This document shows, piece after piece, positions 2 to 22,634 of a stretch of 24,000 nt of DNA. The translations under genes were made by a program, and so were the position numbers. The notes beneath the pieces are model-generated. The model searched no databases. It saw only the letters and a program-made list of their open reading frames with translations, and had not been told where the DNA came from. The stretch lies in assembly GCA_964497435.1 (NCBI GenBank), contig CAZCCD010000004.1, positions 93,922-117,921 on the forward strand. The letters run 5' to 3'. Numbering within the stretch: position 1 is the stretch's first letter; every line of letters begins with the position of its first letter. This DNA is from Candidatus Woesearchaeota archaeon (lineage in GTDB: Archaea; Nanobdellota; Nanobdellia; Pacearchaeales; GW2011-AR1).

Positions 2-3000
2 CATTACGTAAGGGTTACTTTTGAAAAGAATTTAACAAATGAAAATGATATAACAATTTATCCAAGAATTGTAAATGGAGCTCCGAGAATAGAGGTATAT
101 GAAAAAGATTTAAATGAAATTGTAGCTGAATTTAATGTCATAAATGATAGTCAATACAATAAAGTATTTTTGATCAATCTAATTGGAGAACAAGATGTTT
201 TTGATTTGCTTATTTTAAATGGAGATTTAGAATTTGATCATATAATTGATCCGACAAAAACAGCAGGGCCAAATATCTCTGTTTTTAATACTTATTTAAG
301 ACCAACATCATGTCAAGGAGAAGATGGTGATGTTGGAGATAATTTCACTGATGCTTGTGATGGAACATACCCCAGTTCATCATGTGGTGTTGGAGCAGAT
401 TTTGTTAGTTGTGATGACTCTGTAAATGAATCAATGACAGCAACAGCAGTAGCTGGAACTAGTTATGCTGGGGTAAAGTTAAACATCTCTAATTCTTCGA
501 TAACTAATTGTGCTAGTATAACTCAGGTAGTTGTTTGTTATGAATGGTGGATTACTGGAGGAACATCTCAAAATTGCAGAGTGACTGTTTCTAATGGAAC
601 CCATGAAAGCAATGCAAGCACTTTCTGTCCCGGCTCATCTTTTAACCCTGGAGTGAATTGTTCAACTGTAACCTCAAATTTAAGTTGGGGATGTGGAAAC
701 TTTTTTAATCCTACAAATACAGAATCTTATATCGAAAGCGAGTTCCAAAAAGGTTCTGGACTTGGATCGAGAACTGGGTGGTGGGATGTTCTTTATTATA
801 ATGTTACTTACACAACCTCTAATACTCTTCCAACACATGACACACCAAGCATAACTCCTTACCCTACCGCAACTACTGATAATAATCTTACAGCATCTAA
901 TGTTTCAACAAGCGATGTTGATGGAGATTTAGTAACTAACATATATAACTGGAAAGTAAATAGCACTCTTTTAACAATCCTTAACATGCCATTTGACACA
1001 AATATTTCAGTAACAACCCCAAATCTTGTTAAAGATTATTCTGGAAATGGAAACAACGGGACATTAAATTCAAGCAATGTTACATGGGTTAATAATGGCA
1101 GGGTTGGAGGAGCCTATAACTTTTCTAGATCTGTTGACTCACTTATAACAATTAATGATTCAGCTAGTTTAAGGCTTACACAGAATTTAACTGTTATGGC
1201 ATGGATAAATCTTTCAGATAATGTTACTGACTCTAACACAAATCATTATACCATCTTAGCTAAGAAGAATGGAGCAGGAGACGCTAATTATTGGTTTGCT
1301 CTAACTGGACAGGCAGGGAATCTTGGGAAACTTCATCTTTATATGACGGGCCCTGGATATAATTTTGGTAGTAAGAATAACTGGAATGAAAATCAGTGGT
1401 ATTTTGTTGCAGCTACTTATAATAATACCCATGTTGCTTTTTATGTCGACGGAGTTGTTGATAATATAGTTGCTGAAACAGTTGCAATAGGTGCATATAA
1501 TGCAGATGCATTAAATATTGGTGCATGGACACAAACACTGCATTGGTTTAATGGAACATTAGATGAGATCAAAGTTTTTAATAGGTCTTTATCAGCAAGT
1601 CAGATTTATCAGATTTATCTTGATACGAGAAATGGAACAAGTATGAATAGCAATATGACTAGTAGCGAGATAAGAGCAGGTGAAAATTGGACAGTAGAAG
1701 TGACTCCAAATGATGGAATTGGGGATGGGACTTTAAAATTAAATTGGACAGTCATAGTATCTGACAACATTCCAACTGTAACTTTATCAAACCCAAGCGA
1801 TGGAGCTAGTGGCGTTGACTTAACGAGTTTTATATGCAATACAACAGATGATATTAATCTTAAGAATGTAAGTCTATACGGAAATTGGACAGGAAGCTGG
1901 CATTTGAATCAAACAACAAACATTTCTGGGACAAGTAACAGCACTAATTTTACGAATATTGACCTACCTGATGGGACTTTTGTCTGGAATTGTCTTGTTT
2001 ATGATAATAGTTCTCAGTCAGCATTTGCCTCTTCTAATTTTACTGTTACAAACGATAGATGCGGATTAACTCAGGTTTCCTCAACTACAACATTGACAAA
2101 GAGTCAGTGTGAACATTATAATATAACTTCTAATAATGTTGTTTTTTCGTGTGGAGGATATACTGTTTTTGGACATACAGGACTTATAGGAAATGTATCA
2201 ATAACAGCCAAGGATAGAAATAATATAACTGTAAAAGACTGTATTTTGACAAATTGGAGTCATGGAATTTCTTTTTCAAATGTGACAAATTCTTTGATAT
2301 TTAATTCAACGTTATTAAATTTAAGCGATATTAGCGAAGGAAATGTCTATTCTTTAGGAATAAACCTTACTAGTTCTAATTATAACAACATCACTAATGT
2401 TAATATAACAAATATGACGACTCAATCAACATCTGGCTCTGGATGTTATGACGGTAGTTTAAGAGGAGTTAGCCTATCTTCTTCGGAAAATGTTACAATA
2501 AATAATTTAAAAGAAAACTTTATTAATGGAACTTTTAGATTAGATGGAGATACAGAAAATCCAGGATGTCAACTTGTAATTACTACTACTGGTGATGGAG
2601 TTATTATTTCATCATCTTCTCACAACTTTACTATATTTAATTCTACATTTAATACTATAGGTGCTGAAGCAATAGATGGAGATTCTTCAGGAAGATTAAA
2701 TATTACTTTAAATACAATAACTAATGCAGCCACTGGAATAGAGACAACCAATGAAAATACAGGAGGATATGCTGTTGGAAATAATATAAGTAAAAGTAGT
2801 GTTGGTATTGACATCTCTTCTTCTGGTAGCTGGACTGTTCAATATAACAATGTGAATTTTGTAAGTAGTAAAGGAATTTCTGTTTCAGGCATAGGAGGAT
2901 ATGTTGATCATAATGTTGTTAATCATATCAATTCAAGTAGTAGTAGTGTTGGAGGAATAACAATGGGCATATTAAACACAAACTCATTTGACAACAATAC

Positions 3001-5179
3001 TGTTTACAATGCTTCTTTTTCAACTCCTTCAAGCTCTGCTATTTATGTGACAAGAAATTTTAATGGCACATACATAAATGTAACAAATGCAACAAATGGA
3101 TTTTACTTTTCTGGCTCTAATGCAGATAATTCTAACTTAACAAATTCATCTATATCTGAAACATTGTGGAATTCTACTTATATAAGTGGGGCTTCAAATG
3201 TTAATTACTACAATGTGACCCATGATACATCGAAAATAAACATTTCTTCTGGGAGTTTTTTTAATTATTATTATTTACAAGTTAATGTTACTGATCATAA
3301 TTATGCAGCCTTAAATGTAGCCAGTGTTAATGTCACTAACAATACTGGGAGTGGATCTCCGGAAATCCAAACAACGACAGGCTCTAATGGCTTAACACAA
3401 CAACTTGTTATATTGACATTTAATCAAAGTTCATCAGGTGTTGCAAATCACACTCCCCACAACATTTCAGCATCCAAGACAGGATACTCTTTAAACTGGA
3501 CAAGAGAAGCTTTAGACAGGTCAAGATTAATATGGCTTCTTATTCATACTCCTGAAATTCTTTCTTATATACCTACAACAGATACATTTTCAATTGCAGA
3601 ACCAAGTAATCAGACATTTAGCATAATATATACTAATCAGACTCCTGTCCATATAAGATGGTTTGTAAATAATACTGAGAATACAACAATAACAAACACA
3701 AGTCAGTTTATATGGTATGGAAATTATACACAGCAAGGAACCTATCAAATAAAAGTAAATATATCTAATGCCGATGGTTTTGATGAGCAAATATGGACAA
3801 TGACAGTAAATGATACTAATCCTGCTCCGACTCACACAACTCCTTTATTTGATGTATTTCCCCCTGCGAATTCTCAAAATTTTTCCTGTTTAAATCAATC
3901 AACGAGTGATGCTAACGGAGATAATGTAACTAATATTTACAATTGGCTTGTTAATGGAAATTCAACAACTGTCTTGAATATGCCATTTGACACAAACATT
4001 TCAGTAACAACCCCAAATCTTGTTAAAGATTATTCTGGAAATGGAAATAATGGAACTTTGAATAGCAGCTCTGCTTTAATTTGGACATCAAATGGAAGGG
4101 TTGGAGGAGCTTATAATTTCTCTGGAAATTCTGGTTCAATAATTAGAATTAATGATTCTTCTAGTCTAAGTTCAACTCAAAACTTAACTGTCATGGCTTG
4201 GATAAAACCAGCATTGAATTTTACAGGAGCAGGCCTTGTTCGTACTATTTTAGTCAAGAGAAACTCAACAACTTTTTCTTACAGGTTTAATATAGATGAT
4301 ACTGTATTTGAAGATGGTAAGTTAGATTTTCTTATTATGGGAGTTTCTCATAAATCTGTTAGAAATAACTGGACAAAAGATACTTGGTATCATGTTTCAG
4401 CAACTTATAATAAATCACATGTAGTTTTGTATGTTGATGGAGTTGTTGATAATACTGTTGCTGAGACAAGAAGCATTTCTTATGATGGAAACCCTCTTGA
4501 TATTGGAGGACAAAATAACAATTCTTTGTTATTTAACGGAACAATAGATGATGTAAGGATTTACAACAGGTCTTTGTCTAGCAGCCAAATTTATCAGATT
4601 TATTTAGATACTCAAGATGGTTTAAGCAATAAAAGTGTTATTGTTGGTGATGAAACACTAGTCAACGAGAATTGGACATGTCAAGTTACTCCAAACGATG
4701 CTTATCAAGATGGAACAACTCTTTCAAATTCAACAAATATAACAAGTGCTGCAATTGCTATGTCTCTTTCATCTAAATTAGCTCAACAAATAAATTGGAC
4801 TCTTACAGTCCTTCCTACTGTTAATCAATCAGCAGAAGGGAATAATGGGACAGACATCACAGAATATTACATAAATGTTACAGCAACAGGAGGAACAGCC
4901 GATGTTTACATTAGGGCTAATGATAATCTAAAAACTTCTGGAGGAGATATTCTTGGACTTGGGAATGAAACCTTTAATTATAATTTAACTAATTCAACTG
5001 TCCCTGGAGAAAGTAGGATACAATTAACCACTAATTTTTCAGACAATAAAATAGGCAGCAATATTGAAAGCGGAATTATCTATCTTAAATTTTATTTAAA
5101 TGCGCCTGCTGCACAGCCTGCCGGAATTTATAATAACACACTGGAATTTAAAGGAGTCGCAAGTGGTGAATCTCCTTAA
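2..5179 (+). CDS. Giant secreted/cell-surface protein, 5'-partial. Contains two LamG/ConA-like lectin modules, an Ig-like domain, a parallel beta-helix region and a C-terminal ~143-aa domain shared with the next gene.
   Basis: The frame is open from base 2. The track start at 170 is a TTG with no signal peptide after it, and the first in-frame ATG is near 433, so the CDS probably continues upstream of the window. The LamG-like signature occurs twice: NMPFDTNISVTTPNLVKDYSGNGNNGTLNSS..GRVGGAYNFS..LTVMAWI..ATYN..HV.YVDGV..FNGT.D...NRSLS.SQIYQIYLD. Residues ~630-1000 (nt ~2057-3170) show short N/I/V/T/S-rich periodic turns typical of right-handed beta-helix (PbH1/NosD-like) proteins. N-x-S/T sequons are very dense. 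Confidence 0.85.
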   Translation, partial: HYVRVTFEKNLTNENDITIYPRIVNGAPRIEVYEKDLNEIVAEFNVINDSQYNKVFLINLIGEQDVFDLLILNGDLEFDHIIDPTKTAGPNISVFNTYLRPTSCQGEDGDVGDNFTDACDGTYPSSSCGVGADFVSCDDSVNESMTATAVAGTSYAGVKLNISNSSITNCASITQVVVCYEWWITGGTSQNCRVTVSNGTHESNASTFCPGSSFNPGVNCSTVTSNLSWGCGNFFNPTNTESYIESEFQKGSGLGSRTGWWDVLYYNVTYTTSNTLPTHDTPSITPYPTATTDNNLTASNVSTSDVDGDLVTNIYNWKVNSTLLTILNMPFDTNISVTTPNLVKDYSGNGNNGTLNSSNVTWVNNGRVGGAYNFSRSVDSLITINDSASLRLTQNLTVMAWINLSDNVTDSNTNHYTILAKKNGAGDANYWFALTGQAGNLGKLHLYMTGPGYNFGSKNNWNENQWYFVAATYNNTHVAFYVDGVVDNIVAETVAIGAYNADALNIGAWTQTLHWFNGTLDEIKVFNRSLSASQIYQIYLDTRNGTSMNSNMTSSEIRAGENWTVEVTPNDGIGDGTLKLNWTVIVSDNIPTVTLSNPSDGASGVDLTSFICNTTDDINLKNVSLYGNWTGSWHLNQTTNISGTSNSTNFTNIDLPDGTFVWNCLVYDNSSQSAFASSNFTVTNDRCGLTQVSSTTTLTKSQCEHYNITSNNVVFSCGGYTVFGHTGLIGNVSITAKDRNNITVKDCILTNWSHGISFSNVTNSLIFNSTLLNLSDISEGNVYSLGINLTSSNYNNITNVNITNMTTQSTSGSGCYDGSLRGVSLSSSENVTINNLKENFINGTFRLDGDTENPGCQLVITTTGDGVIISSSSHNFTIFNSTFNTIGAEAIDGDSSGRLNITLNTITNAATGIETTNENTGGYAVGNNISKSSVGIDISSSGSWTVQYNNVNFVSSKGISVSGIGGYVDHNVVNHINSSSSSVGGITMGILNTNSFDNNTVYNASFSTPSSSAIYVTRNFNGTYINVTNATNGFYFSGSNADNSNLTNSSISETLWNSTYISGASNVNYYNVTHDTSKINISSGSFFNYYYLQVNVTDHNYAALNVASVNVTNNTGSGSPEIQTTTGSNGLTQQLVILTFNQSSSGVANHTPHNISASKTGYSLNWTREALDRSRLIWLLIHTPEILSYIPTTDTFSIAEPSNQTFSIIYTNQTPVHIRWFVNNTENTTITNTSQFIWYGNYTQQGTYQIKVNISNADGFDEQIWTMTVNDTNPAPTHTTPLFDVFPPANSQNFSCLNQSTSDANGDNVTNIYNWLVNGNSTTVLNMPFDTNISVTTPNLVKDYSGNGNNGTLNSSSALIWTSNGRVGGAYNFSGNSGSIIRINDSSSLSSTQNLTVMAWIKPALNFTGAGLVRTILVKRNSTTFSYRFNIDDTVFEDGKLDFLIMGVSHKSVRNNWTKDTWYHVSATYNKSHVVLYVDGVVDNTVAETRSISYDGNPLDIGGQNNNSLLFNGTIDDVRIYNRSLSSSQIYQIYLDTQDGLSNKSVIVGDETLVNENWTCQVTPNDAYQDGTTLSNSTNITSAAIAMSLSSKLAQQINWTLTVLPTVNQSAEGNNGTDITEYYINVTATGGTADVYIRANDNLKTSGGDILGLGNETFNYNLTNSTVPGESRIQLTTNFSDNKIGSNIESGIIYLKFYLNAPAAQPAGIYNNTLEFKGVASGESP
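830..1732 (+). repeat. Intragenic module A (~300 aa): DxDGD strand, LamG domain, W.V.VTPNDG strand.
   Basis: Runs from PTHDTP.. to ..WTVEVTPNDGIGDGT and aligns end to end with module B. Its core at nt 986-1053 matches 3980-4047 with a single mismatch. Confidence 0.8.
3827..4717 (+). repeat. Intragenic module B (~297 aa), a paralog of module A.
   Basis: Runs from PTHTTP.. to ..WTCQVTPNDAYQDGT with the same motif order as module A. The shared stretch atgccatttgacacaaa(t/c)atttcagtaacaaccccaaatcttgttaaagattattctggaaatggaaa is almost identical at nucleotide level. Confidence 0.8.
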
Positions 5180-5249
5180 TTTTTAATGTAATAATATGGA
5201 AATATTTAAAAGAAAAGATGTATTTTAGATTGCATATAAAGAGGTTAAA

Positions 5250-5846
5250 ATGAGGATTGAAAATATAATAGTTTTAATTTTTGGTTCGGTTTTTTTATTT
5301 TCAATTATAATGTTTATGACTCAAGGAATAAGGATGACAGGCTATGCAACAACAAGCACAACAGTTTCAAATGTGACCATATCAACTTTTTTTGCTATTG
5401 CCATGTCAACAAATCTTTCAGATGGAATAAGATTTGGAAATTTAACAACTTTACCTGTAACAAATCAAAATGCAACCCACAATTTTGATGGAACAAACAC
5501 GACAATGTCTGGAAATGGGACATCTATGTGGGTTAATGTTTCCACAGACAGTAATACAGCTGTTGATTTTTGTTTGAAGGCAGACGACAACTTAAGAACT
5601 AGTGGTGGAGATGTTTTAACTTTGGCAAATGAATCATATCATAATTCTAGTGTTACTAATTTAACACAACCAGATATGGGAAGCGAGATTGCATTTACGA
5701 GTTCTTATGTTAAGGCAGGTCCTAATGTTGCCGCAGGAAGTCAGCATTATTACAGATTCTGGTTGGATGTTCCAGCAGGACAGGCTTCAGGAACATATAA
5801 TAATACAATTAGTGTTAAAGGAGTGTCAACAGGAGGTTCATGTTAA
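5250..5846 (+). CDS. Small secreted, probably N-glycosylated protein; paralog of the C-terminal domain of the giant protein.
   Basis: An SD-like aaagaggt lies 5 nt before the ATG. It has an N-terminal hydrophobic signal/anchor (IIVLIFGSVFLFSIIMFM). Residues 49-198 align with giant-protein residues encoded at 4748-5176: AIAMS, ADDNLRTSGGDVL vs ANDNLKTSGGDIL, FWLDVPAGQASGTYNNTISVKGV vs FYLNAPAAQPAGIYNNTLEFKGV. I counted 11 N-x-S/T sequons by hand. Confidence 0.85.
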   Translation: MRIENIIVLIFGSVFLFSIIMFMTQGIRMTGYATTSTTVSNVTISTFFAIAMSTNLSDGIRFGNLTTLPVTNQNATHNFDGTNTTMSGNGTSMWVNVSTDSNTAVDFCLKADDNLRTSGGDVLTLANESYHNSSVTNLTQPDMGSEIAFTSSYVKAGPNVAAGSQHYYRFWLDVPAGQASGTYNNTISVKGVSTGGSC

Positions 5847-5906: not shown

Positions 5907-6584
5907 ATGAAAAATAAACTCTGCTTTGTTTTGTATTTAATCATTATTTTAAATGTTTATTTTGTTTCAGCAGAATCTGGTGTTGGGATTAGGTCTTATC
6001 AAGAATCAATACTTCTTAGAGAAAATCAAGAAGGATGCGTGTCTGTTGGAGCTTATAATCCTTTCAATGAAGATACAAAAGTCATAGTTGGCATTTCTGA
6101 TGAACTGAAAGAAGTCCTTATTTTACAAGAGGCGGAATCAAAATTACTTCCTGCTTTTACCTCAAGTAATGATGCAATACCTTTAAAGTTTTGTTTTAAG
6201 GTCCCTAAATTCTATCAAAGAGATTGTTCTATAGGGAGTTTTATTTGTGAACTTACTTGTAATGAACCTCAAAAAGAATACTCTGGAGAAATTTCTCTTA
6301 CAACTCAACCTTCAAGTACAGATATTGGGGGGGCTGGTGGCTCTGCAACAAAATTATCAGTTTCTACAAAATTAAATGTCAGGGTTGAATGTATTCCTCA
6401 TCCCAGGGAGTATACTGCTGTTTATGTTTCTCTGGCTTTGATTTCAGTGTTTGTTGTAGGATTTGTATTATTCAAGAGATATAGAAAGCCTAAAGTTCAG
6501 AGGGACAGGGAGAAGTTAATGAAACTTAAGGCAGAGATAGCTAAGGAAGAGAGTAAAGGTAAAGGCAAATCTAAAAAAAGATAG
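5907..6584 (+). CDS. Membrane-anchored surface protein: signal peptide, beta-rich ectodomain, C-terminal TM helix and K/R-rich tail.
   Basis: N-terminal signal LCFVLYLIIILNVYFVSA|ES. The ectodomain is Cys-containing and has a GGAGGS linker. C-terminal TM segment AVYVSLALISVFVVGFVLF is followed by KRYRKPKVQRDREK...KGKGKSKKR. Confidence 0.75.
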   Translation: MKNKLCFVLYLIIILNVYFVSAESGVGIRSYQESILLRENQEGCVSVGAYNPFNEDTKVIVGISDELKEVLILQEAESKLLPAFTSSNDAIPLKFCFKVPKFYQRDCSIGSFICELTCNEPQKEYSGEISLTTQPSSTDIGGAGGSATKLSVSTKLNVRVECIPHPREYTAVYVSLALISVFVVGFVLFKRYRKPKVQRDREKLMKLKAEIAKEESKGKGKSKKR

Positions 6585-6857: not shown

Positions 6858-8786
6858 ATGATTAGATTAAAAAGAGGTTGGTTATTATTATCTATATTTT
6901 TAACTATAGTGGCAATTTTCTTCAATATAAGATTTTTGGGATTTGCAATAAATGCAACCACTCCATCAAACGTCACTATTTCTGCAGGAAATTCTTTTCC
7001 TGTTATAGGGCCAATTAACAGCTCTTTATTTATTTGTGAGAGTCAGAGCATGTTTTATCAATTTAATGCTACAGATATTGACGGAGATGTTTTAACAGGA
7101 AGGATTTCTCCTCAAGATCCATTTTTTGTATTTTGGGTCTCTCAAGAAAGTCCTAATACTCATAATTTTGCAATAGTTTCCGGGACTCTAGACAAGGGAG
7201 ATGTCGGAGGAGTTAACAATGGCTTTCAGTTATACCAGGAAACTGTTTTTATTAGCGATAATTTTAATTCAAGCTGCTGTGAAGATTCTGAAAAGGTTAA
7301 TATAACTGTTGTGGAAAAGAACAATGTTCCTGTAGTTGAAGACATAGGAGTTAAAACAATCTATACACAAGGAGAGAATTCAACTTTGTATGAGGTTTGG
7401 AGTGTTAATGATACAGAGTTTAACCTTGGTTATGGCGGTTTGACTTATAACATATCTATTAAAAATTCTTCTGGCTCTGCAGTTAATTTATTTAATATAA
7501 GTTCTTTAGGAGTCATTAATTTTACAGCAAATACTTCTACGACTTTAGGAGTTTATAATGTAACTGTTTGTGTTAATGATACAGGACTTTCTAACCCTCA
7601 TCAAAATATAAGTTCTATATGTGGTAACTCTGGAAATTCTCAATCTGTTTGCGACTCTTTCAGTTTAACAATAACAGACGAAAATAGGCCACCAAATATT
7701 ACTTCTTATTATCCTACTAGTTTGGAATTTAGTAGCTTAGGAACTTCGTCACTTTTTTTCAATATAACAAAGCATGATCCTGATGGAACAATTCCTGATG
7801 CTTATTGGTATCTGGATGGTGTATTTAGGGAGCTTGATTCAGGAAGTTTTGTTGACACATTTAGTTATACTTTTGGATGTGGTATTTCAGGAATTCATAA
7901 TATTAGTGTTGAGATTACAGATGGTTTGCTTAATGATTCATTACAATGGAATGTAACTATTAATGAAGTTTCATGTGCCGCTCCTCCACCAGTTGTTGGT
8001 GGGGGCGAGGGTGGAGGAGGTGGATTTGCCGGGTTTAAGGAATTCAGTGTCTATCCAGAATTTATAACAACAACTGTTTTACATCAACAAGGAAAGAGCT
8101 TTGATATTAATGTTACAAATACAGGAACAGCAATCATAGATATTTCAATGGCAATAGAGAATTTAACAGATAAGGCAATTTTAAGTGAAGAAAATTTCAA
8201 TCTAATACCAGGCAAATCAAAAATTGTTAGACTTTATCTTTATGCCCTAAGTGAGACAACTCCAGGAGTTTACTTTGGGAGAATTATGGTGAGCGACGGT
8301 GCATCAACAAAATATGTAAAGATAGTTTTAGAAGTTAAAGAGAGAGAGCCTTTGTTTGATTTGAAAGTAATAGTTCCTCCTGAATACAAAGTAGTTAATC
8401 CTGGAGAAAATATAGGAGTCATAGTTAAAATGTTAAATATTGGTTTATATGGGACAGCTGTTGACGTGGATCTTGTTCTTTATATTGTTGACCTTGAAAA
8501 AGTAATACTTTATGAGTCTTCTAAAGAAGTCATTGCTGTTGAAACTAATTTATCAATTGAAAGAACTTTATATGTTCCTATAGATGCAACAAGTGGGACT
8601 TATCTTGTTTTAGGAGAGGCTAAATATACAAATATAAGTATTAGCACTTATGACACTTTTGTTGTTGTGCAAAAGAAATTCTTGAAGATAAGTTATATAT
8701 TGTTGATATTGTTGGTTTTAATTTTGATATTATTTATAATATTTATTTTATATAAAAGAAGGAAGAAAAAGAAGGAATGGGAATAA
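6858..8786 (+). CDS. Membrane-anchored surface protein with Ig/cadherin-like repeats, a Gly-rich hinge, two CARDB/NEW3-like beta-sandwich domains, a C-terminal TM helix and a basic tail.
   Basis: N-terminal signal/anchor WLLLSIFLTIVAIFF. DxDGD-type motifs (NATDIDGDVLTG, KHDPDGTIPDAYWYLDG). Hinge PPPVVGGGEGGGGGFAGF. Two repeats of the pattern ..V.V.N.G......v......pG.s..v....vp....GtY.g.i.. typical of archaeal surface beta-sandwich domains. C-terminus ISYILLILLVLILILFIIFILYKRRKKKKEWE. Confidence 0.8.
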   Translation: MIRLKRGWLLLSIFLTIVAIFFNIRFLGFAINATTPSNVTISAGNSFPVIGPINSSLFICESQSMFYQFNATDIDGDVLTGRISPQDPFFVFWVSQESPNTHNFAIVSGTLDKGDVGGVNNGFQLYQETVFISDNFNSSCCEDSEKVNITVVEKNNVPVVEDIGVKTIYTQGENSTLYEVWSVNDTEFNLGYGGLTYNISIKNSSGSAVNLFNISSLGVINFTANTSTTLGVYNVTVCVNDTGLSNPHQNISSICGNSGNSQSVCDSFSLTITDENRPPNITSYYPTSLEFSSLGTSSLFFNITKHDPDGTIPDAYWYLDGVFRELDSGSFVDTFSYTFGCGISGIHNISVEITDGLLNDSLQWNVTINEVSCAAPPPVVGGGEGGGGGFAGFKEFSVYPEFITTTVLHQQGKSFDINVTNTGTAIIDISMAIENLTDKAILSEENFNLIPGKSKIVRLYLYALSETTPGVYFGRIMVSDGASTKYVKIVLEVKEREPLFDLKVIVPPEYKVVNPGENIGVIVKMLNIGLYGTAVDVDLVLYIVDLEKVILYESSKEVIAVETNLSIERTLYVPIDATSGTYLVLGEAKYTNISISTYDTFVVVQKKFLKISYILLILLVLILILFIIFILYKRRKKKKEWE

Positions 8787-12149: not shown

Positions 12150-15100
12150 CTATCCAAGATAACTGCTTTCTGCAGGAACAGCTGCTTTGACTGCTTTTAG
12201 ATAATTGTCTTCGACTTTTTTGTATACTTCTATTGTTGATTTTGTGATGCTTGGTTTTATTTTTTTCAATGCTTCTTCAAAGTGAGAAAGCTTTACTTGC
12301 TTTGCTTCTTTTGATTCTCTCAAGGCGAGCATTCCTGCCTCTCTCACTACAGCCTCTAAATCAGCTCCGGTATATCCTTCTGTTTTCTTTGCGAGTTCTT
12401 TTAATGAGATGTTTTTTGCCAGAGGCATTTTTTTTGTATGAATCTCAAGTATTTTTAATCTTCCTTCTTCTGTTGGCGCAGTGACTAAAAGTATTTTGTC
12501 AAACCTCCCTGGTCTTAATAATCCAGGATCTAGCAAGTCTGGCCTATTAGTTGCACCTATTACTAAAACATCTTTTAGATCTTCTAAGCCATCCATTTCA
12601 GCAAGCATTTGATTTAAGACTCTTTCTGTAACTTTTGTTCCTGCTTCTAGGCCTCTTCTTCCTGCAAGTGCATCTATTTCATCAAAAAATACTATACAAG
12701 GAGCAACCTGTCTTGCTCTTTCAAATACTTTCCTCATTCCTTCCTCACTTTCACCAACCCATTTACTTAGCAATTCAGGACCCTTAATCTGGATAAAATT
12801 AGCCTCTGATTCTTTTGCGACAGCCTTGGCCAAGAGTGTTTTTCCTGTTCCAGGAGGGCCATAAAGAAGTATTCCTCTAGATGGTCGTATCCCCATTCTG
12901 TCAAAACCCTCTGGAAATTTAAGAGGCCATTCAACAGCTTCTTTCAATTCTTGTTTTACTTTTTCTAGACCACCAACATCTTCCCAACCAATATTTGGGG
13001 TTTCAACTAAAACCTCCCTCATTGCACTTGGCCTTACTACTTTTAAAGCATCCATAAAATCATTATGTTTGATAATTAATTTTTCCAGCATTTCAGGAGG
13101 AATCTGCTCTTCTTTGTCTAATTTCATTTCAGGAAGCAGTTTTCTTAGAACATTCATTGCAGATTCTTTTGCGAGAGCTTCAAGATCGGCTCCAACAAAA
13201 CCATGTGTTAATGAAGCTATTTCATATAACACTGCTGGGATTGACTCTTTTCTTACTATATCAAAATATTCTTTAGATAACACGTTTGAATCCTGTAGGT
13301 CATTTAAAATCTCAAAAACTTGTTTCTCACTTTCAGACAAATTTCTTTTTAAAAAAATGCTTCTAGGATCATTTTGTCCTCTTTTAGCGAGAGAATCCTT
13401 TAATACACATATCTCTTTTATCAACTCAATTAGAAGTTGTTTATTATTCTTAAATTCATCACTTCTTTTCCTAACTACTAATATGTCTTTCCTTATTTTA
13501 TCTATTTGACTTTCAGAATCTTTTACATCTTTGGTAATTGTTTGTATACGCTTTTCTAAAGTAAGAATTTGATCGTTCAAATCATCTATATTTTCTCTTA
13601 GTTTTTTTAATTCACTTTTTTTTAGTCTAAACAGCTCTAATACTTCTGAGAGGTGAAATTTTCTTTCATATTCTCTTTCTAACGTTCTAAATTCATTCTC
13701 TAATCTTTTTAACAACAGACTTTTTCCTTCAGAATCAGAATTTAAATCCTTTAATTCTTTACTTTTATCTTTTTTCTCTTTAGAAATCTTCTCTATTTTT
13801 TCTGCTAACTTTGATATCTTAATATTTGAATTTTCTTCAAAAGAAGATAATTCATTTAAGAAAACTTTTTTAGAGATATTAATATCCCAAAAATCAAGAG
13901 GCATTCCTCTTGTATGAATTTGCAAAATTTGTAACCTTCCATTTTTATCCGGGACTCCTACTTCAATCTCTCTATCAAATCTCCCAGGCCTCCTTAAAGC
14001 AGGGTCAAGTGCATTTACTCTATTTGTTGCCCCAATTACAATTACTTTTCCTCGAGATTTTAGGCCATCCATCATAGTTAATATCTGGGAGACGACTCTT
14101 CTTTCGACTTCTCCAGAAACATCTTCACGTTTTGGTGCAATGGCATCAATCTCATCTATGAAAACTATTGCTGGTGCTGTTTTCTCAGCCTCTTCAAAAA
14201 CATCTCTAACTCTCTTTTCACTCTCTCCATAGAACTTAGAATTATGCATTAAAAAATAAGGAGAAGCAGTAAAGCTGTCTTTATCAACGGTAAAATCATA
14301 CAATTCCATTTTGCCGAGAGGAGTTAAATTATCTACTCTCTCCCATGCAATATCATTTCTAAGCAAAGTGTTAAACTCTTTTTTCACAGCATCATTTACA
14401 ATGTTGTGTTCGACCGCCAAATCATAAAGAACTTTTAATGAATGTTTTGTAGCCTTATCAGTTTTATAAATATAATAATCTTTATTTCTATAATTTTTAT
14501 AAGGAATTCTTTTTATCTCTTCTATTAATAAGGAAGGGTGAGGTATATTCTCATACTCTTTCACTCTTATAACTTTTTCTATTTCTTTCAAAGCAGCTAA
14601 TTTATGTTTGCTTACTGCACCAATTTGCAAAAATTTAACTCTTCCTTCATTACCCCTAACAACTAACTTATACATTAATCCTTTTGGTGTATGATGTTCT
14701 GCTAATTTAGTACTTATACCTAATTTTAATAGCATCAATGACTGTAATTGGGATAAAAACTCCTTTTTAACGCTATAAAGATAAGGTGTTGGATAGATCA
14801 TATTCTTTACTTTTATTTTCATAACTGTTCCATCCCCATCAAAATATCCTCTAATAAAAGACTCAATTTCATTTTTTGGAAGGGTGAAGAAATAACTAGG
14901 AATATGTTCCTTATTTTCACTCGTAAACTTTAGTAGTCTTAGATATTCTACTAAAAGTTTTGAATAAACTATAACCCCAAACATCTTCCCCTTATTTTTT
15001 TCCTTAAAATTATCAATATTGAAAACCCTCTTAACGAGAAACTTAAAACGTTCTATTAATTCAATATTATTGTTATAAAAACCAATCGAGTCATCTTTTC

Positions 15101-16493
15101 CAGAGATATTCCCATCAGAAACTATTAAACCTAACAATTCTAAAAGCTCTGAAGATGTTTTTTTGGGAAGCTTGATAAAATTACTTCTTGAAAGGTTTAT
15201 ACTTTTAATAGCGAAATTACCATCTTTCTCTGTTAAGCTGAATTTTTGATGCAGTTCACTTAACGGGACATTAAAACTAGATTCCTCTAAATCTATTTTA
15301 TTTAACCTGGCAACAAAATCTCCTTTATTTAGGTTTCTCACAGCCTCCCAAACTAACTCTCCGTTTCTATAAACCAAAAACGGCTGATTTTCAGAAGCAA
15401 TAATTTCGTTTCCGTCGCTTAATTCTAATTTAAAAGACTCTGCCTCTAATTTCGTAACATGTGTGATGTTGGCTTTCTCTATTTTGCCGTCCTTAAATGA
15501 ATATGTGCTGATTGGCTTATCAAGTTTTTTTAGAATATAATCTCTAAATTTTTCATCTTTTCCTTCTTGTAGATAAATCTGTTTAGCCTTTATATATCCA
15601 TCAGGATTTGTTAAGACTTGTGTTTCTCCAGAAACACACATTACTTCTGGCCCGTTTAACAAAATAAAATTAGCATCTGTTTCGTTTGCGACTGCCTTGG
15701 CCAAGAGTGTTTTTCCTGTTCCAGGAGGACCATGGAGTAAAACTCCTTTTGGAGGCTCTACACTTAACCTTTCAAATATTTCAGGATGTTTCATAGGTAT
15801 CTCAACCATTTCTCTTATCTTTTTGACCTCATCATCTAATCCACCAATGTCTTCATAAGTTATTTCAGGGATTTTTTCTTCAGAGATTTCGACTGCTTTT
15901 GGATTTAATGTTACTTCTGTGTTTTCTGTGACAATACATGGCTGGCTTGGAGAGATATTCACTACGAGAAATTTTATTTGTGTTATTCCTCCTCCAAGAT
16001 TTCCAAATCCCATATTGTTTAACATTTCTCCAAACAATCCGCTGAATTCATCATCCATTGACTCAGAGAAGAGATCTCGTCTTCTTTGGACTCCGCCAAG
16101 GACAACTATATCTCCTTTAACTATTGCCCTTCCTAAAAGCCCTCTTCTTAAACTATTAGAGTCAGCCTGAATCATTATGCCTTTTTGAGCAGGAGCAATA
16201 ATTACTTTTTTAGCTTCTTTAATTTCAACTTTAGAAACAGAGACAACATCTCCTATACCTGTCCTTGCATTTCTCCTTAGTATTCCATCTATTCTTATTA
16301 TTCCTTCTCCAACATCTGCAGGATAGGCCCTATCAGCTATTGCAATTGTTTCTTTATTTCCTTTAATCAAGATTACATCTCCTCTTTTTATACCTAGTTC
16401 TCTCATGATTTCAGAATCTATTCTTGCTATTCCTTTGTATGCATCATCTTGCAATGCTTCAACAACCTTTAACTGAACTTTTTTTTCTGTCAT
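12150..16493 (-). CDS. cdc48: Cdc48/VCP-like AAA+ ATPase (N-D1-D2) interrupted by an intein and carrying a coiled-coil insertion.
   Basis: N-domain present ([28 protein letters not shown]). D1 has Walker A GPPGTGKT (aa 255-262) and Walker [11 protein letters not shown]2 has [37 protein letters not shown]. The 1447-aa length is explained by a 466-aa intein plus a ~220-aa insertion. Confidence 0.95.
13230..13895 (-). other. ~220-aa K/E-rich coiled-coil insertion in the Cdc48 D1 alpha-helical lid subdomain.
   Basis: Canonical Cdc48 reads HTR.MPL(~10 aa)[11 protein letters not shown]. Here HTRGMPL (aa 860-866) and [13 protein letters not shown] (aa 1091-1103) are separated by heptad-like sequence: [23 protein letters not shown]...[42 protein letters not shown]... 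Confidence 0.8.
14241..15638 (-). mobile_element. Full-length intein with a LAGLIDADG homing-endonuclease domain, in Cdc48 D1.
   Basis: The extein junction NGPEVM|C...HN|SKFYGESE restores the conserved AAA motif GPE.MSK.YGESE. Block A is CVSGETQVL and blocks F/G are [19 protein letters not shown] followed by +1 Ser. The two LAGLIDADG motifs are [12 protein letters not shown] and [12 protein letters not shown]. Length is 1398 nt (466 aa). Confidence 0.9.
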
Positions 16494-18447: not shown

Positions 18448-19083
18448 ATGAGTTTTAAAGAGAATCTAAAGAAATACTGGAGTAAATTCTGGTTTATTGT
18501 CTGGAAAGATAATAGTGTCAAAGGATGGTTAATCTCTATAATATTTCTTTTTGTCGTTATAAAATTTATATTTTTTCCTATATTGAATTTAGTTACCGGA
18601 ACATCTTTACCTTTGGCAATTGTTGAATCTTGCTCAATGTATCATAAAGGAAATTTATTTTCTGATTTTGATGCATGGTGGAATAGACATGATGAAAAAT
18701 ATTTAGATTTTAATATAAATATAAATGATTTTGAAAATTATAAGTTCAAAAATGGCTTTAATAAAGGAGATATTTTATTTATTGTTGGAACAGATCTTGG
18801 TAAAATAAAAAAAGGAGATATTATAATATTTGATGCTGGAAAGCAAAATCCATTAATTCATAGAGTCGTTGATATAGAAACTGATTTGGAAACTAGTGAG
18901 AAATCCTTTTCAACAATAGGAGATAATAATAACGGCCAATTGTCTGTTGAAAAAGATATAAAAGAAAATCAAATTATAGGTAGGGCCGTCTTTAAGTTAG
19001 TGCCTTATATTGGATGGGTGAAGCTAATATTTTTTGAGGCTAATAGAGTGTCTAATGAAAAAGGTTTTTGTCATGAAAATTGA
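18448..19083 (+). CDS. Signal peptidase I, archaeal/eukaryotic Sec11 type (S26B).
   Basis: N-terminal TM anchor. The Ser box is VESCSM, the His box PLIHRVV and the Asp box TIGDNNNG. About 42 aa separate the Ser box from GDILF, versus a handful in Sec11-type enzymes as I remember them. Confidence 0.85.
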   Translation: MSFKENLKKYWSKFWFIVWKDNSVKGWLISIIFLFVVIKFIFFPILNLVTGTSLPLAIVESCSMYHKGNLFSDFDAWWNRHDEKYLDFNININDFENYKFKNGFNKGDILFIVGTDLGKIKKGDIIIFDAGKQNPLIHRVVDIETDLETSEKSFSTIGDNNNGQLSVEKDIKENQIIGRAVFKLVPYIGWVKLIFFEANRVSNEKGFCHEN

Positions 19084-19329
19084 TAACTTATTTGAGCAAT
19101 AGAAAGATTTAGGTAAATTAGATATGATAAAAATTATAATAGTTAATAATAAAAAGGTTTGTGTTTGGTTAGTATTTGAGAAAATAACTACGAGTAAAAC
19201 GAGTAGCAATTTTAAATAGTGGAAAAGTTTTTAAATAAAATAAATAGACATTAAATAAAAACAAAGATAACATGGAATTTTGCCCTAAATACGAAGATGT
19301 GAGTATTTTCAAAATTCAATAAAACTAAA

Positions 19330-19638
19330 ATGGAATTTTGCCCTAGATGCGGTGCAGTCCTTGTACAAAAAAGGAAGAGAGATGGATGCCCTAGATGTAA
19401 TTACTCTGCTAAAGGGAGAGTTAAGATAAAAACCTCTGAGAAAATCAATGGAAAGAGAGAAGTGGTTGTTGTTTCTGAAAGAGAAGCAGAAGTTCATCCT
19501 ATTGTTGCAGAAACATGTAAGAAGTGTGGAAATGAGAAAGCATATTTTTGGTCTGTTCAAACAAGGGCAGGAGATGAGGCAGAAACAAAGTTTTTCAAAT
19601 GCACGAAATGCCAGCATACCTGGCGAGATTATAGGTAA
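19330..19638 (+). CDS. tfs: Transcription factor S / RNA polymerase subunit M family (TFIIS-type zinc ribbon).
   Basis: N-terminal ribbon CPRCG...CPRC. C-terminal ribbon CKKCGNEKAYFWSVQTRAGDEAETKFFKCTKCQHTW includes the acidic-loop motif QTRAGDE. Confidence 0.9.
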   Translation: MEFCPRCGAVLVQKRKRDGCPRCNYSAKGRVKIKTSEKINGKREVVVVSEREAEVHPIVAETCKKCGNEKAYFWSVQTRAGDEAETKFFKCTKCQHTWRDYR

Positions 19639-20140: not shown

Positions 20141-21430
20141 ATGGTAATAATCTTAGGCATAGAATCAACAGCCCACACATTTGGAGTAGGAATTGTTAGG
20201 AATGGAAAAATATTAAGCAATGTAAAAAGTATGTATTCTACTGAAAAAGGAGGCATAATTCCTATAGAATCTGCCAAGCATCATTCTTTAGTTGCCCAAG
20301 AAATTTATAACAAAGCTATTGAAGAAGCTAACTCGTCCAAGCTTGGCCAAGTTAAAGAAAAAGATATTGATGCTGTTGCTTTTTCACAAGGTCCGGGTTT
20401 ATCTCCTTGTCTTCTTGAAGGAATGAAATTTACAAAGCATATTTGTAAAAAATTAAATGTCCCTTTAGTTCCTGTTAACCATTGTGTCGCGCATTTAGAA
20501 ATTGGGAAAATTACAGGAGCTAAAGATCCTGTTTTGCTTTATGTTTCAGGAGCAAATACACAAATCATTGCCTACGAATCTGGAAAATACAGGATTTTTG
20601 GCGAGACTCTTGATTTAGGAGTTGGAAATTTTATTGACACATTCGCAAGATATCTCAGCCTAGGATTTCCAGGAGGCCCTCAGATTGAACAACTAGCTTT
20701 GAAAAGCAAAAATTATATTGAATTGCCTTACACTGTTAAAGGAATGGACATTGCTTTATCTGGAATATTGACTAATTTAAGGCAGAAGATTGAGAAGATG
20801 AATAGACCTGGAAATTCTTCCCACCTCCTAACCCCCACCACCAACCCTAACAACCTCCGACCCGTTCATAATTTGCACTCGTTCAACACTCGTGATATTA
20901 ATGGCTCAGAACAGACTTTGTCAAGTTCTTCGCTTAAAAAAATTGTTAAGGTTAAAAGTCTCGGAAGTTTAGATAAACAATCACCTCAAAATTTTTCTAT
21001 TAACAATTTAAATAAAATTCGAGCGAGCGATAGAAAAATTCGTCCAAGCTTGGCCAAATTAGAGCGAGACAATTTAATAAATTTTACAAAAGAAGATTTA
21101 GCATTCAGCATGCAGGAAACTGTCTTTGCAATGCTAGTTGAAGTTGCTGAAAGAGCTCTTGCTCATACAGGAAAAAAAGAGCTTGTCCTTGGAGGGGGTG
21201 TTGCATGCAATTCAAGGCTTCAAGAAATGTGCAAGATAATGTGCAAAGAAAGAGAAGCTAAAATGTTTGTTCCAGAAAAATCTTTGTTAATTGACAATGC
21301 TACGATGATTGCTTACCTTGGTGAAATTATGTTTAAGTCAGGAATAAAAATTATGCCCAAAAATTTAGATAAAGTTGATATAAAACCAAGACAACGAACT
21401 GATGAAGTGGAAGTTAGTTGGAAAGTTTAA
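20141..21430 (+). CDS. kae1: Kae1 (tRNA N6-adenosine threonylcarbamoyltransferase, KEOPS catalytic subunit) with a ~95-aa insertion.
   Basis: ILGIESTAHTFGVGIV, FSQGPGLSPCL, VPVNHCVAHLE, LYVSGANTQ, GETLD.GVGN..D, GGP.IE, SGILT, AFSMQETVFAMLVEVAERALAHTGKKELVLGGGVACN. The 429-aa length compares with the ~330 aa I remember for stand-alone Kae1. No Bud32 kinase is fused. Confidence 0.9.
   Translation: MVIILGIESTAHTFGVGIVRNGKILSNVKSMYSTEKGGIIPIESAKHHSLVAQEIYNKAIEEANSSKLGQVKEKDIDAVAFSQGPGLSPCLLEGMKFTKHICKKLNVPLVPVNHCVAHLEIGKITGAKDPVLLYVSGANTQIIAYESGKYRIFGETLDLGVGNFIDTFARYLSLGFPGGPQIEQLALKSKNYIELPYTVKGMDIALSGILTNLRQKIEKMNRPGNSSHLLTPTTNPNNLRPVHNLHSFNTRDINGSEQTLSSSSLKKIVKVKSLGSLDKQSPQNFSINNLNKIRASDRKIRPSLAKLERDNLINFTKEDLAFSMQETVFAMLVEVAERALAHTGKKELVLGGGVACNSRLQEMCKIMCKEREAKMFVPEKSLLIDNATMIAYLGEIMFKSGIKIMPKNLDKVDIKPRQRTDEVEVSWKV
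20795..21085 (+). other. Low-complexity insertion within Kae1 (aa ~219-315).
   Basis: It sits between SGILTNLRQKIEK and TKEDLAFSMQET, which are separated by only ~10-15 aa in Kae1 sequences I remember. It is S/N/P/L/K-rich and starts with a locally C-rich tract, cccacctcctaacccccaccaccaaccctaacaacctccgaccc. Confidence 0.75.
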
Positions 21431-22042: not shown

Positions 22043-22405
22043 TCATATATTCCTAACTCTTATCTGGCCTTCAGTTACTACAACAAAACTTGAATTTAGT
22101 TTGTTCCCTAAAATTTTTATAGTTTGTTCAATGTATTTCTGTCTTTTAATGGGCAAGTCTTCTTTTAATCTTAAAAGAATAACTCCTGAAGAAGGCTTTT
22201 TTATTCTAAAAATAAGTTTGCCAAAATCTTTATCATTAGTTATTAAAATTCTTTTTTCTTTTTCTGCAAAATAGAGCACTCTTTCATCAGAAACTCCTGG
22301 CATAATGTCTCCTATGTATTTAGAATCAAATCCATTTTTTACAAGATAATTATGTAATTTTTTACCAGAGCTTTCATCTATTAAAAAAGAAAGCATTTTA
22401 TTCAT
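22043..22405 (-). CDS. DUF5615-like PIN-fold protein; putative toxin partner of DUF433.
   Basis: LSFLIDESSG..L...L...G.D.......PG.SDERVLYFAEKEKRILITNDKDFG matches the DUF5615/Mut7-C-like PIN pattern (acidic D/E near the N-terminus, T.D.DF near the C-terminus). It overlaps the upstream DUF433 gene by 8 nt. Confidence 0.7.
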   Translation of the reverse strand: MNKMLSFLIDESSGKKLHNYLVKNGFDSKYIGDIMPGVSDERVLYFAEKEKRILITNDKDFGKLIFRIKKPSSGVILLRLKEDLPIKRQKYIEQTIKILGNKLNSSFVVVTEGQIRVRNI

Positions 22406-22634
22406 TTAATGGAAATATATTTTCATCATTAACTATTTCAGCTACATAAGCCAGTGCAGCTCTTATATCTTCTTTTGTTAGATTGGGATAATCTTCAATT
22501 ATTTCTTCCTCTGTCATTCCTTGAGCTAGAAGTCTTATAATTGTATCCACAGGTATTCTTGTCCCTTTTATTATAGGTTTACCTATCATTATCTTTGGGT
22601 TCATTATAATTCTTTTTTGTAATCTTGCTTCCAT
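22398..22634 (-). CDS. DUF433 protein; putative antitoxin/DNA-binding partner.
   Basis: IMIGKPIIKGTRIPVDTIIRLLAQGMTEEEIIEDYPNLTKEDIRAALAYVAE matches the DUF433 signature (GkP.ikGTRipV..il..l..G.s.eeI...YP.Lt.edI.aAL.Ya). Confidence 0.85.
   Translation of the reverse strand: MEARLQKRIIMNPKIMIGKPIIKGTRIPVDTIIRLLAQGMTEEEIIEDYPNLTKEDIRAALAYVAEIVNDENIFPLNE

Follow-up and report, generated by a model that had tools for sequence, protein, structure and literature searches.

Among the archaeal surface fibres described so far, Tafi has been modelled as a tip bearing a Laminin-G (LamG) domain, an adapter, a major subunit and a transmembrane (TM) anchor that are joined by donor strands (PMC11821415), and its donor-strand assembly has been solved by cryo-electron microscopy (PMC12337348). 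Published surveys of Tafi relatives cover the Halobacteria, Thermococcales, Archaeoglobales and Sulfolobales and not the DPANN archaea, and a limited literature search turned up no published account of a system of this kind in DPANN. The DPANN archaea are ultra-small, mostly uncultured organisms that are thought to live attached to hosts. Here we describe a four-gene cassette at the start of a stretch of 24,000 nucleotides from a Candidatus Woesearchaeota archaeon (assembly GCA_964497435.1, contig CAZCCD010000004.1, positions 93,922 to 117,921), the whole of which is called the window below. The cassette encodes a giant surface protein (BIG), a small secreted protein (PIL) and two membrane-anchored proteins (p225 and p642), and we infer by analogy that it specifies a kind of archaeal strand-donation fibre with its own subunits and parts (Table 1).

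A sequence-only reading of the window had proposed that the C-terminal domain of the giant is re-encoded as a stand-alone secreted protein by the next gene, and this alignment was borne out. The giant tail (nt 4748-5176, 143 aa) and the 198-aa protein (5250-5843) were aligned by BLASTP with E=6e-27 (61/152 identities, 40%; 62% positives), the alignment spanning residues 3-142 of the tail and 48-197 of the small protein. A profile of the small-protein homologues matches residues 1569-1724 of the partial giant open reading frame (ORF) with E=1.9e-42 (nt ~4706-5173), so that the shared module begins ~40 nt earlier than was first noted and reaches the last residue, giving a shared unit of ~157 aa that extends to the C-terminus of the giant. 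The sequence blocks listed in the earlier reading (AIAMS, LP..NQ, (K/R)A(D/N)DNL(R/K)TSGGD(V/I)L, (F)(W/Y)L(D/N)(V/A)PA and YNNT...KGV) are present in the family alignment. The homology of the giant tail and PIL is far above chance and recurs in other genomes, as the same module terminates 45 different large proteins encoded in other DPANN genomes.

The median identity was found to be 46.5% among the modules of large proteins and 46.2% among PIL proteins, compared with 33.8% between the two groups. The giant module of the window is 55-60% identical to the giant modules of other genomes and 40% identical to the neighbouring PIL; since the identity across genomes exceeds the identity to its own neighbour, the duplication is old and both copies have been retained. 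Judged by these comparisons, the last ~157 aa of the giant and PIL are ancient paralogues of one immunoglobulin (Ig)-like module. A cysteine pair (C108 and the C-terminal C198) was observed in 75-76 of the 80 PIL family members and 42 of the 51 large-protein modules are free of cysteine, while the final residue is proline in 46 of these 51 modules and cysteine in PIL. Column 30 of the hidden Markov model (HMM) is tryptophan in 100% of the large-protein copies and phenylalanine in 100% of the small proteins. For this reason the INWTL motif, noted for the giant in the sequence-only reading and compared there with a two-motif layout, is a mark of the large-protein subfamily and is not common to the two. 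A second pilin-like module in the same polypeptide, which would amount to a natural donor-strand-complemented construct, was looked for and none was found, the large proteins carrying a single C-terminal copy.

One genome per species was scanned for the cassette, which gave 68 loci in which all ORFs were called and searched with profiles. These searches used hmmsearch with --max; the default HMMER filters miss the large proteins at five loci (L009, L011, L012, L041 and L043). A recurrent gene order was seen almost everywhere, namely a large protein, one or two PIL genes, p225 and p642. The large proteins range from 387 to more than 3316 aa and have variable heads with the module at the end; Laminin_G_3 domains occur in some of the heads, Ig-like domains in others and nothing recognisable in the smallest. 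Homologues of p225 (~195-250 aa) adjoin PIL in nearly every locus and are sometimes placed between two PIL genes, and homologues of p642 (337-699 aa) lie downstream in most loci. A close relative (L004) has the same four genes with a giant of 2777 aa.

The pairing of a large and a small protein was found in 47 of the 51 loci with enough upstream sequence (exceptions: L039, L058, L065 and L069) and spans metagenome-assembled genomes (MAGs) of Woese-, Pace-, Nano- and Aenigmatarchaeota. The module stops 1-4 residues short of the stop codon in 45 of these 47 large proteins. A survey of this kind had been suggested in the sequence-only reading, which took a large protein sharing its terminal domain with a small subunit as the logic of the locus and named a small gene standing alone across related genomes as the contrary outcome; the proposed logic holds in the genomes surveyed, with pairing as the prevailing arrangement. 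We are nearly certain that these genes make up one conserved surface-assembly cassette built around the shared module. One of the exceptional loci (L069, 2000-2563) comes from a MAG labelled Methanosarcinales and contains a subunit and p225 with no large partner within 2 kb upstream; mis-binning or horizontal transfer could explain its presence there.

A total of 168 PIL homologues were found in a 90%-clustered database, about 185-225 aa in length, all of them named 'hypothetical' and none with a Pfam domain. All labelled homologues belong to DPANN MAGs (Pacearchaeota, Nanoarchaeota, Woesearchaeota and Aenigmatarchaeota), and a PIL profile search of a 50%-clustered library returned 639 clusters at E<=1e-3. 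No relatives of PIL among curated families or solved structures were found by sequence in Pfam, NCBIfam or the PDB, with either single sequences or profiles. Three size classes were observed in the family: proteins of ~200 aa, proteins of ~290-300 aa and large proteins with one copy at the extreme C-terminus. Members of the ~290-300-aa class (e.g. P0154) begin with a coiled coil on the cytoplasmic side, and a TM helix then leads to the pilin-like domain, and they take the place of the ~200-aa subunit at two loci (L060 9665-10564 and L066 9665-10579). In a protein of 698 aa (P0128), the small subunit is read through into a p642 homologue, which reflects either the gene call or a real fusion. 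Another protein (P0210, 1201 aa) consists of a complete subunit with signal peptide, strand and domain followed by a C-terminal extension of ~1000 aa, and the TafC-like domain order therefore also occurs within the PIL family.

The N-terminal region of PIL contains a cleavage-type site that is found family-wide (...TG[YFH][AV]), followed by ~6-8 residues and then by SNVTI. At least 90% of the sequences share T30, and the same holds for G31. In the strand itself S40 is invariant in the family and N41, V42, T43 and I44 are each at least 90% conserved, and the mean top-residue frequency of the strand is 0.69 as against 0.60 across the remaining domain. An AlphaFold2 (AF2) model of PIL, made from an alignment of 41 sequences, has a mean predicted local distance difference test (pLDDT) score of 86.3, with a helix at residues 3-24 and a seven-stranded beta-sandwich at pLDDT ~90; the strand region (residues 33-48) is unstructured and was modelled as coil with pLDDT 51-68. 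The AF2 monomer of the strand-donating fimbrin Mth60 is likewise reported to be 'open', with its N-terminal strand unpacked (Galeva et al., PMC11821415). Natural variants of the PIL strand (SQVTI, SEAVI, SKVNI and SRVQI) have lost the N-x-T sequon and kept the alternating x-V-x-I pattern, which favours a beta-strand with one buried face over a glycosylation signal.

Two further observations concern the PIL gene and its signal peptide. A gene for an archaeal signal peptidase I (18448-19083, +; TIGR02228, E 8.4e-18) lies 9.6 kb from the cassette, among housekeeping genes and outside the conserved set, and its product is likely to be the enzyme acting on the TG[YF]A sites. A hairpin past the PIL stop codon was considered as an attenuator that would raise the subunit:tip stoichiometry and was rejected, as it was not better than shuffled sequences (z=-1.15) and no terminator-like sites were found.

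The PIL strand was also found in p642. This protein is laid out as a signal peptide, a PIL-like strand, Ig/cadherin-like ectodomains unrelated to PIL, a Gly/Pro linker, a C-terminal TM segment and a KR tail. When clean alignments of p642 and PIL were compared with hhalign, a single match of 20 columns was obtained that includes TT.SNVTIS (Prob 89%, E=2.2e-6, 60% identity). A profile of 22 columns made only from PIL scored at least 8 bits in 20 of 56 p642-family ORFs, in none of 2826 other ORFs and in none of 70 p225 ORFs, and the p642 matches always fall directly past the hydrophobic core of the signal peptide. A segment of the form [ST]-x-S-x-V-[ST]-[IV] is recognisable in p642 of most of the ~45 loci. 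A longer p642-PIL similarity of 125 residues given by jackhmmer was discarded as profile contamination on iteration; BLASTP and hhalign give ~20 residues. When the PIL and p642 strands were compared by eye from locus to locus, no convincing co-variation emerged. Profile and single-sequence searches of the PDB with p642 returned nothing meaningful, and DUF5305 was not matched in p642 by Pfam at E<=1.

In the modules of large proteins, the columns equivalent to the strand have a mean top-residue frequency of 0.28 with 20-60% gaps, the remainder of the module having 0.58 and matching PIL in its degree of conservation. The giant of the window has no stop codon back to the window edge, by which its ORF is 5'-truncated, and a listed TTG start at 170 was rejected as an artefact. 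The protein contains a region rich in Cys, a pair of Laminin_G_3 domains, stretches of Ig-like and of beta-helix-like character and, at its C-terminus, the pilin-like module. The Laminin_G_3 match in Pfam has E=9.6e-42 over two stretches. The TafC fimbrial model of NCBIfam also matches the giant (E=1.7e-27, below its cut-off), in the LamG part only, and the second LamG region corresponds to positions 181-367 of the TafC profile.

Six full-length giants were found at related loci (L004 1459-9792, L007 4416-9812, L008 1504-8013 on the minus strand, L016 1521-9773, L021 681-9947 and L059 2412-9794). All six start with a conserved cytoplasmic motif of ~40-60 aa (YKRY.YRNGK.FGPYYY.SYRD..GK..KRYVG), which is followed by one TM helix and then by an (I/S)(T/S)G(Y/F) site that resembles that of PIL. 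The smallest of the large proteins (387-756 aa) have a plain signal peptide instead, ending in ...VSADIISINSGG. To judge from its sequence, the N-terminal motif with the TM helix could be either an N-terminal anchor or an extended form of signal peptide through which giant proteins are secreted.

The remaining protein of the cassette, p225, was modelled by AF2 with pLDDT 88 as a signal helix and an 11-strand Ig-like sandwich (residues 27-161), from which a TM helix (170-192) leads to a helix of basic character in the cytoplasm (196-222). The ectodomain has six or seven conserved cysteines. Foldseek returned generic Ig-like matches (complement MG domains, archaeal Fsx1 and MSP domains) and, at lower ranks, two chaperones of chaperone-usher systems, Caf1M (E 2.4e-3) and SafB (E 1.2e-2). 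By hhalign p225 is unrelated to PIL, and its sequence searches of the PDB gave nothing meaningful. N-glycosylation sequons were found at high density in three of the proteins (the giant, PIL and p642), whereas p225 has almost none. The giant carries 113 sequons (6.6 per 100 aa), about twice the expectation from composition; per 100 aa, PIL has 5.6 in the window and a family median of 4.9, p642 has 3.9 and 2.2, and p225 has 0 and 0.47, with 40% of the p225 family members having none at all.

Searches of the AlphaFold model of PIL by structure had been proposed in the sequence-only reading. The Foldseek list from the PDB consists mostly of donor-strand pilins, namely CsuA/B (7zl4, E 3e-3), FimA (5oh0), SafA, CfaB, Caf1, the FimH pilin domain and the archaeal AbpA (7ueg_A, eighth in the list, E 6.6e-3, TM-score 0.31), all at weak E-values. 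Family membership was examined by a Pfam scan of 41 family members at E<=1. Neither Fimbrial (PF00419) nor SCPU (PF05229) was matched by the window proteins or these members, and PIL matched neither DUF1102 nor TafA/TafE in Pfam or NCBIfam. DUF4402 (PF14352), one of the candidates put forward earlier, gave 12.9 bits and E 0.17 for the window protein against a gathering threshold of 25.2 bits, and its matches recur below threshold in 8 of the 41 members (best E 0.013); it is a lead for remote homology suggested by these scores and not a membership, and a literature search on DUF4402 found nothing. Membership of the TasA/camelysin family was not supported, as Peptidase_M73 was not matched and TasA was absent among the top 50 fold matches; a SipW-type peptidase gene was looked for in the cassette and none was found. 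No usher-sized beta-barrel candidate and no two-domain PapD-like chaperone were seen among the genes flanking PIL in the surveyed loci.

The strand is the most constrained part of PIL, is unpacked in the monomer, is degenerate in the giant and is reused by p642, and we read this combination as strand donation. On balance we lean towards a donor-strand fibre that carries the adhesin at its tip and has PIL as the shaft and p642 as the anchor and terminator. In such a model, the four genes would give rise to a Sec-secreted and heavily N-glycosylated surface fibre with a chaperone-usher-like polarity on a single membrane. Once the signal peptide has been cleaved, the N-terminal strand of each PIL (…SNVTIS…) would complete the sandwich of the previously secreted subunit, and as both donor and acceptor PIL would build the shaft. 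The giant would accept a strand and donate none, which would place it at the distal tip where it would present genome-variable lectin-like/Ig-like heads (FimH/PapG logic). In p642 the same strand would be donated and, without a pilin-like domain, none could be accepted, so that growth would end and the fibre would be tied to the membrane by the C-terminal helix (PapH logic). The sequon-poor, disulfide-rich and tethered p225 would act as a chaperone or platform at the membrane rather than as a fibre component, and where two small subunits are present one of them may be an adapter. The polarity of the fibre is held with less confidence than the fibre as described here. A more far-reaching version, in which a DPANN pilus re-creates the full chaperone-usher logic on one membrane (an acceptor-only tip, a donor shaft, a donor-only TM terminator and a PapD/MSP-like tethered chaperone) for capturing hosts via interchangeable giant adhesins of 387 to >3300 aa, is put forward as a tentative idea that we would not expect to hold in full.

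Table 1. Features of the cassette, with positions in the window, strand and the evidence for each.
Feature	Position	Strand	Evidence and remarks
Giant surface protein BIG, at least 1725 aa, proposed tip adhesin	2..5179	+	Frame open from base 2
Second Laminin_G_3 (concanavalin-like lectin) domain of BIG, directly upstream of the pilin-like module	4136..4591	+	Best Pfam stretch, residues 1379-1530 of the partial protein
C-terminal pilin-like module of BIG, paralogue of PIL, proposed strand acceptor	4706..5176	+	BLASTP and profile; lacks the Cys pair, ends ...GESP
Small subunit PIL, 198 aa, proposed shaft subunit	5250..5846	+	Sec-type signal peptide, conserved strand, Ig-like beta-sandwich, Cys pair
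PIL signal peptide, residues 1-32, predicted cleavage site	5250..5345	+	Hydrophobic core 2-27; AF2 helix 3-24; ...TGYA fits the -3/-1 rule
PIL mature N-terminus TTSTTVSNVTISTFF, candidate donor strand	5346..5393	+	Conservation and lack of packing in the monomer model
p225, proposed membrane-tethered chaperone-like assembly factor (putative)	5907..6584	+	Signal peptide, Cys-rich Ig-like ectodomain, TM, basic helix
p642, proposed donor-only terminator and membrane anchor	6858..8786	+	Hydrophobic segments 6-31 and 606-636
p642 N-terminal motif GFAINATTPSNVTIS, equivalent to the end of the PIL signal peptide and first mature residues	6939..6983	+	hhalign
p642 C-terminal TM anchor, followed by KRRKKKKEWE	8673..8765	+	Hydropathy segment 606-636

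Several observations weigh against the donor-strand fibre. The fold matches of PIL are weak, with none at E<=1e-3 (best 3e-3) and TM-scores of 0.3-0.5, and searches of Pfam, NCBIfam and the PDB place PIL in no pilin family by sequence. The conserved N-terminal motif of PIL could have another role, as a signal for processing or recognition. Giant-type proteins keep a weak x-[FV]-x-[IV] strand ahead of the module, which they might donate. If the N-terminal TM segment of the giants were left uncleaved, the N-terminus would be membrane-bound, which conflicts with a free distal tip in every tip model. The matches that point to a chaperone role for p225 are marginal and rank below the complement MG domains.

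The weakness of the fold matches also favours an explanation without any fibre, in which the module would be an envelope or lattice domain, PIL would form a coat or S-layer-like array, p642 would be a stalk and the giant would dock by its homologous module (a WxL or SlaA/SlaB-type logic without homology). All four are envelope proteins of which two are membrane-anchored, the pairing of large and small proteins alone fits one- as well as two-dimensional assembly, and DPANN S-layers are, to our knowledge, poorly characterised. We nevertheless consider such a coat rather unlikely, since it is linear donor-strand pilins, and not S-layer proteins, that dominate the fold list, mature PIL has only ~165 aa, and a highly conserved, unpacked strand that recurs in an anchored protein with no other relation to PIL is a signature of strand donation.

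The weak strand of the giants bears on a further explanation, which keeps the same fibre and gives it a Tafi-like polarity. The giant would donate its pre-module strand (cf. TafC, TapA), the strands would point cellward and p225 would be a TafF-like acceptor anchor. The model of Tafi has this arrangement, with a LamG tip that donates the first strand and an Ig-like protein with a C-terminal TM segment that accepts the last (PMC11821415), and the architecture of p225 (an Ig-like domain and a C-terminal TM segment) is TafF-like. A beta-strand pattern just ahead of the module is indeed retained by giant-type proteins, but it is poorly conserved compared with that of PIL (0.28 vs 0.69) and has the gaps noted above. 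The PIL-like strand and TM anchor of p642 would be left unexplained by this polarity, as would the degeneracy of the strand in the giant, and p225 is nearly free of sequons, unlike the three presumably exposed proteins, and shares no profile similarity with PIL. We judge it unlikely that the strands run in this direction.

A fibre of the type IV pilin kind, in which PIL would retain its hydrophobic N-terminal helix and this helix would make up the core of the filament, as happens in archaella and archaeal adhesive pili, is very improbable. The succession of a hydrophobic helix and a beta-sandwich in PIL does superficially resemble archaeal type IV pilins, but the class III motif ([KR]-G/A) is not conserved before the helix, where the residue varies (I/G/R/K/S), while a -3/-1 site (TG[YF]A) is conserved past it. 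The module of the giant has no such helix, and no assembly ATPase, platform protein or prepilin peptidase was noticed beside PIL in the surveyed loci. The weakest of the explanations, that PIL belongs to a WxL/Csc-like or TasA-like family as had been suggested from the sequence, draws on an aromatic-x-L-like motif near the start of the giant module, on F/Y-W/Y-L-D/N-x-P near its end and on the place of AbpA, a TasA-like bundling pilin, in the fold list, and can hardly be correct given that WxL (PF13731) like Peptidase_M73 was matched in none of the 41 members, the first motif reads GI.F in the small proteins and has its W only in giant-type copies, the second is F-W-L-D and not W-x-L, no PDB sequence relatives were found, and WxL binds peptidoglycan, which these archaea lack.

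The window has ~31% G+C, and its archaeal housekeeping genes include CDC48 with an intein, TFS, Kae1, type-2 methionine aminopeptidase and the signal peptidase I mentioned above. The CDC48/VCP AAA ATPase (12150-16493, -; 1447 aa) contains an intein with a LAGLIDADG homing endonuclease (Pfam Intein_splicing and LAGLIDADG_3) and, further along the gene, a K/E-rich coiled-coil-like insertion of ~230 aa ahead of the second AAA domain. The Kae1/TsaD homologue (20141-21430, +) has 429 aa owing to a low-complexity insertion of ~100 aa in the TsaD domain (~residues 222-320). A DUF5615 protein (E 8.8e-19) and the overlapping preceding ORF of 78 aa (22043-22405 and 22398-22634, both -) are possibly a toxin-antitoxin pair. 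A 102-aa ORF (19309-19617, -) lies antisense to the TFS gene (19330-19638, +) and is almost certainly spurious, as the TFS frame has Pfam support.

The cassette is widespread, with the 639 clusters at 50% identity and the 68 loci in species-representative genomes spread over at least four DPANN lineages, and it joins highly variable giant lectin-like/Ig-like proteins to a conserved, polymerisable-looking small subunit and a membrane anchor. Several hundred 'hypothetical proteins' thereby gain a family-level annotation. If the donor-strand fibre is correct, strand-donation pili, described for the Thermoproteota (bundling pili and threads) and the euryarchaeal lineages (Tafi, Mth60 and cannulae), would reach a third major group of archaea, and the cassette would represent an independent solution that works without an usher and includes an explicit terminator/anchor. 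Concrete expressible proteins (a subunit of ~165 aa and a strand peptide of 15 aa) would then become available for host-attachment tests and for the labelling of DPANN. Under the more far-reaching version given above, the fibre would also be a candidate for the organelle of attachment that has long been sought in the Woese-, Pace- and Aenigmatarchaeota episymbionts.

Compared with known systems, the cassette resembles the WxL/Csc clusters of Firmicutes in having a large and a small secreted protein with a common C-terminal domain; it differs from them in having no WxL Pfam match and in that the WxL motifs are not common to both paralogues. With AbpA of Pyrobaculum, TasA, the Sulfolobus threads, Mth60 and the Pyrodictium cannulae it shares Sec-secreted, beta-rich subunits and, as we propose, a polymerisation by donation of N-terminal strands that needs no chaperone-usher machinery. 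No sequence relationship to these systems was detected, and none of them has been described with a giant tip adhesin that ends in the subunit fold or with a four-gene cassette like the present one.

In logic, the closest described system by analogy is the haloarchaeal Tafi together with the Sec-dependent DUF1102 relatives of the Thermococcales and Archaeoglobales. Both would be archaeal fibres built on one membrane, and common to them would be a tip that combines Laminin-G and pilin-like domains, small subunits of the Ig-like type (~170-200 aa, either one or two of them, as major subunit and adapter), a TM-anchored terminal subunit and an usher-free donation of N-terminal strands; the combination of a LamG and pilin-like tip protein with TM-anchored proteins is present here in the giant and in the C-terminal TM segments of p642 and p225. 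In contrast to Tafi, the subunits show no sequence relationship and have Sec instead of Tat signal peptides, neither TafD signal peptidase nor TafG/DUF5305 is found within the cassette, which has p225 and the putative donor-strand-only anchor p642, and the polarity proposed here is the opposite one. Giant-type proteins exceed 3300 aa, whereas TafC has 38 kDa, and their pilin-like module is C-terminal whereas that of TafC is N-terminal; with the domain order of the giant reversed in this way, the resemblance to Tafi is one of analogy and not of membership.

The comparison with chaperone-usher pili (FimH-FimG-FimF-FimA, PapG...PapA-PapH and the archaic Csu) concerns fold and logic only (E >= 3e-3). 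In the cassette there is no outer membrane, usher or two-domain periplasmic chaperone, many N-glycosylation sequons are present and the anchor would be an integral membrane protein. What the two would share is an adhesin with an N-terminal binding part and a C-terminal, acceptor-only pilin domain, a major subunit with an N-terminal extension and a terminator that, like PapH, donates a strand and cannot accept one. Their likeness in fold extends to the best matches of PIL, which are CsuA/B, FimA, SafA, CfaB, Caf1 and the FimH pilin domain, and to p225, among whose fold matches are the PapD-like chaperones Caf1M and SafB.

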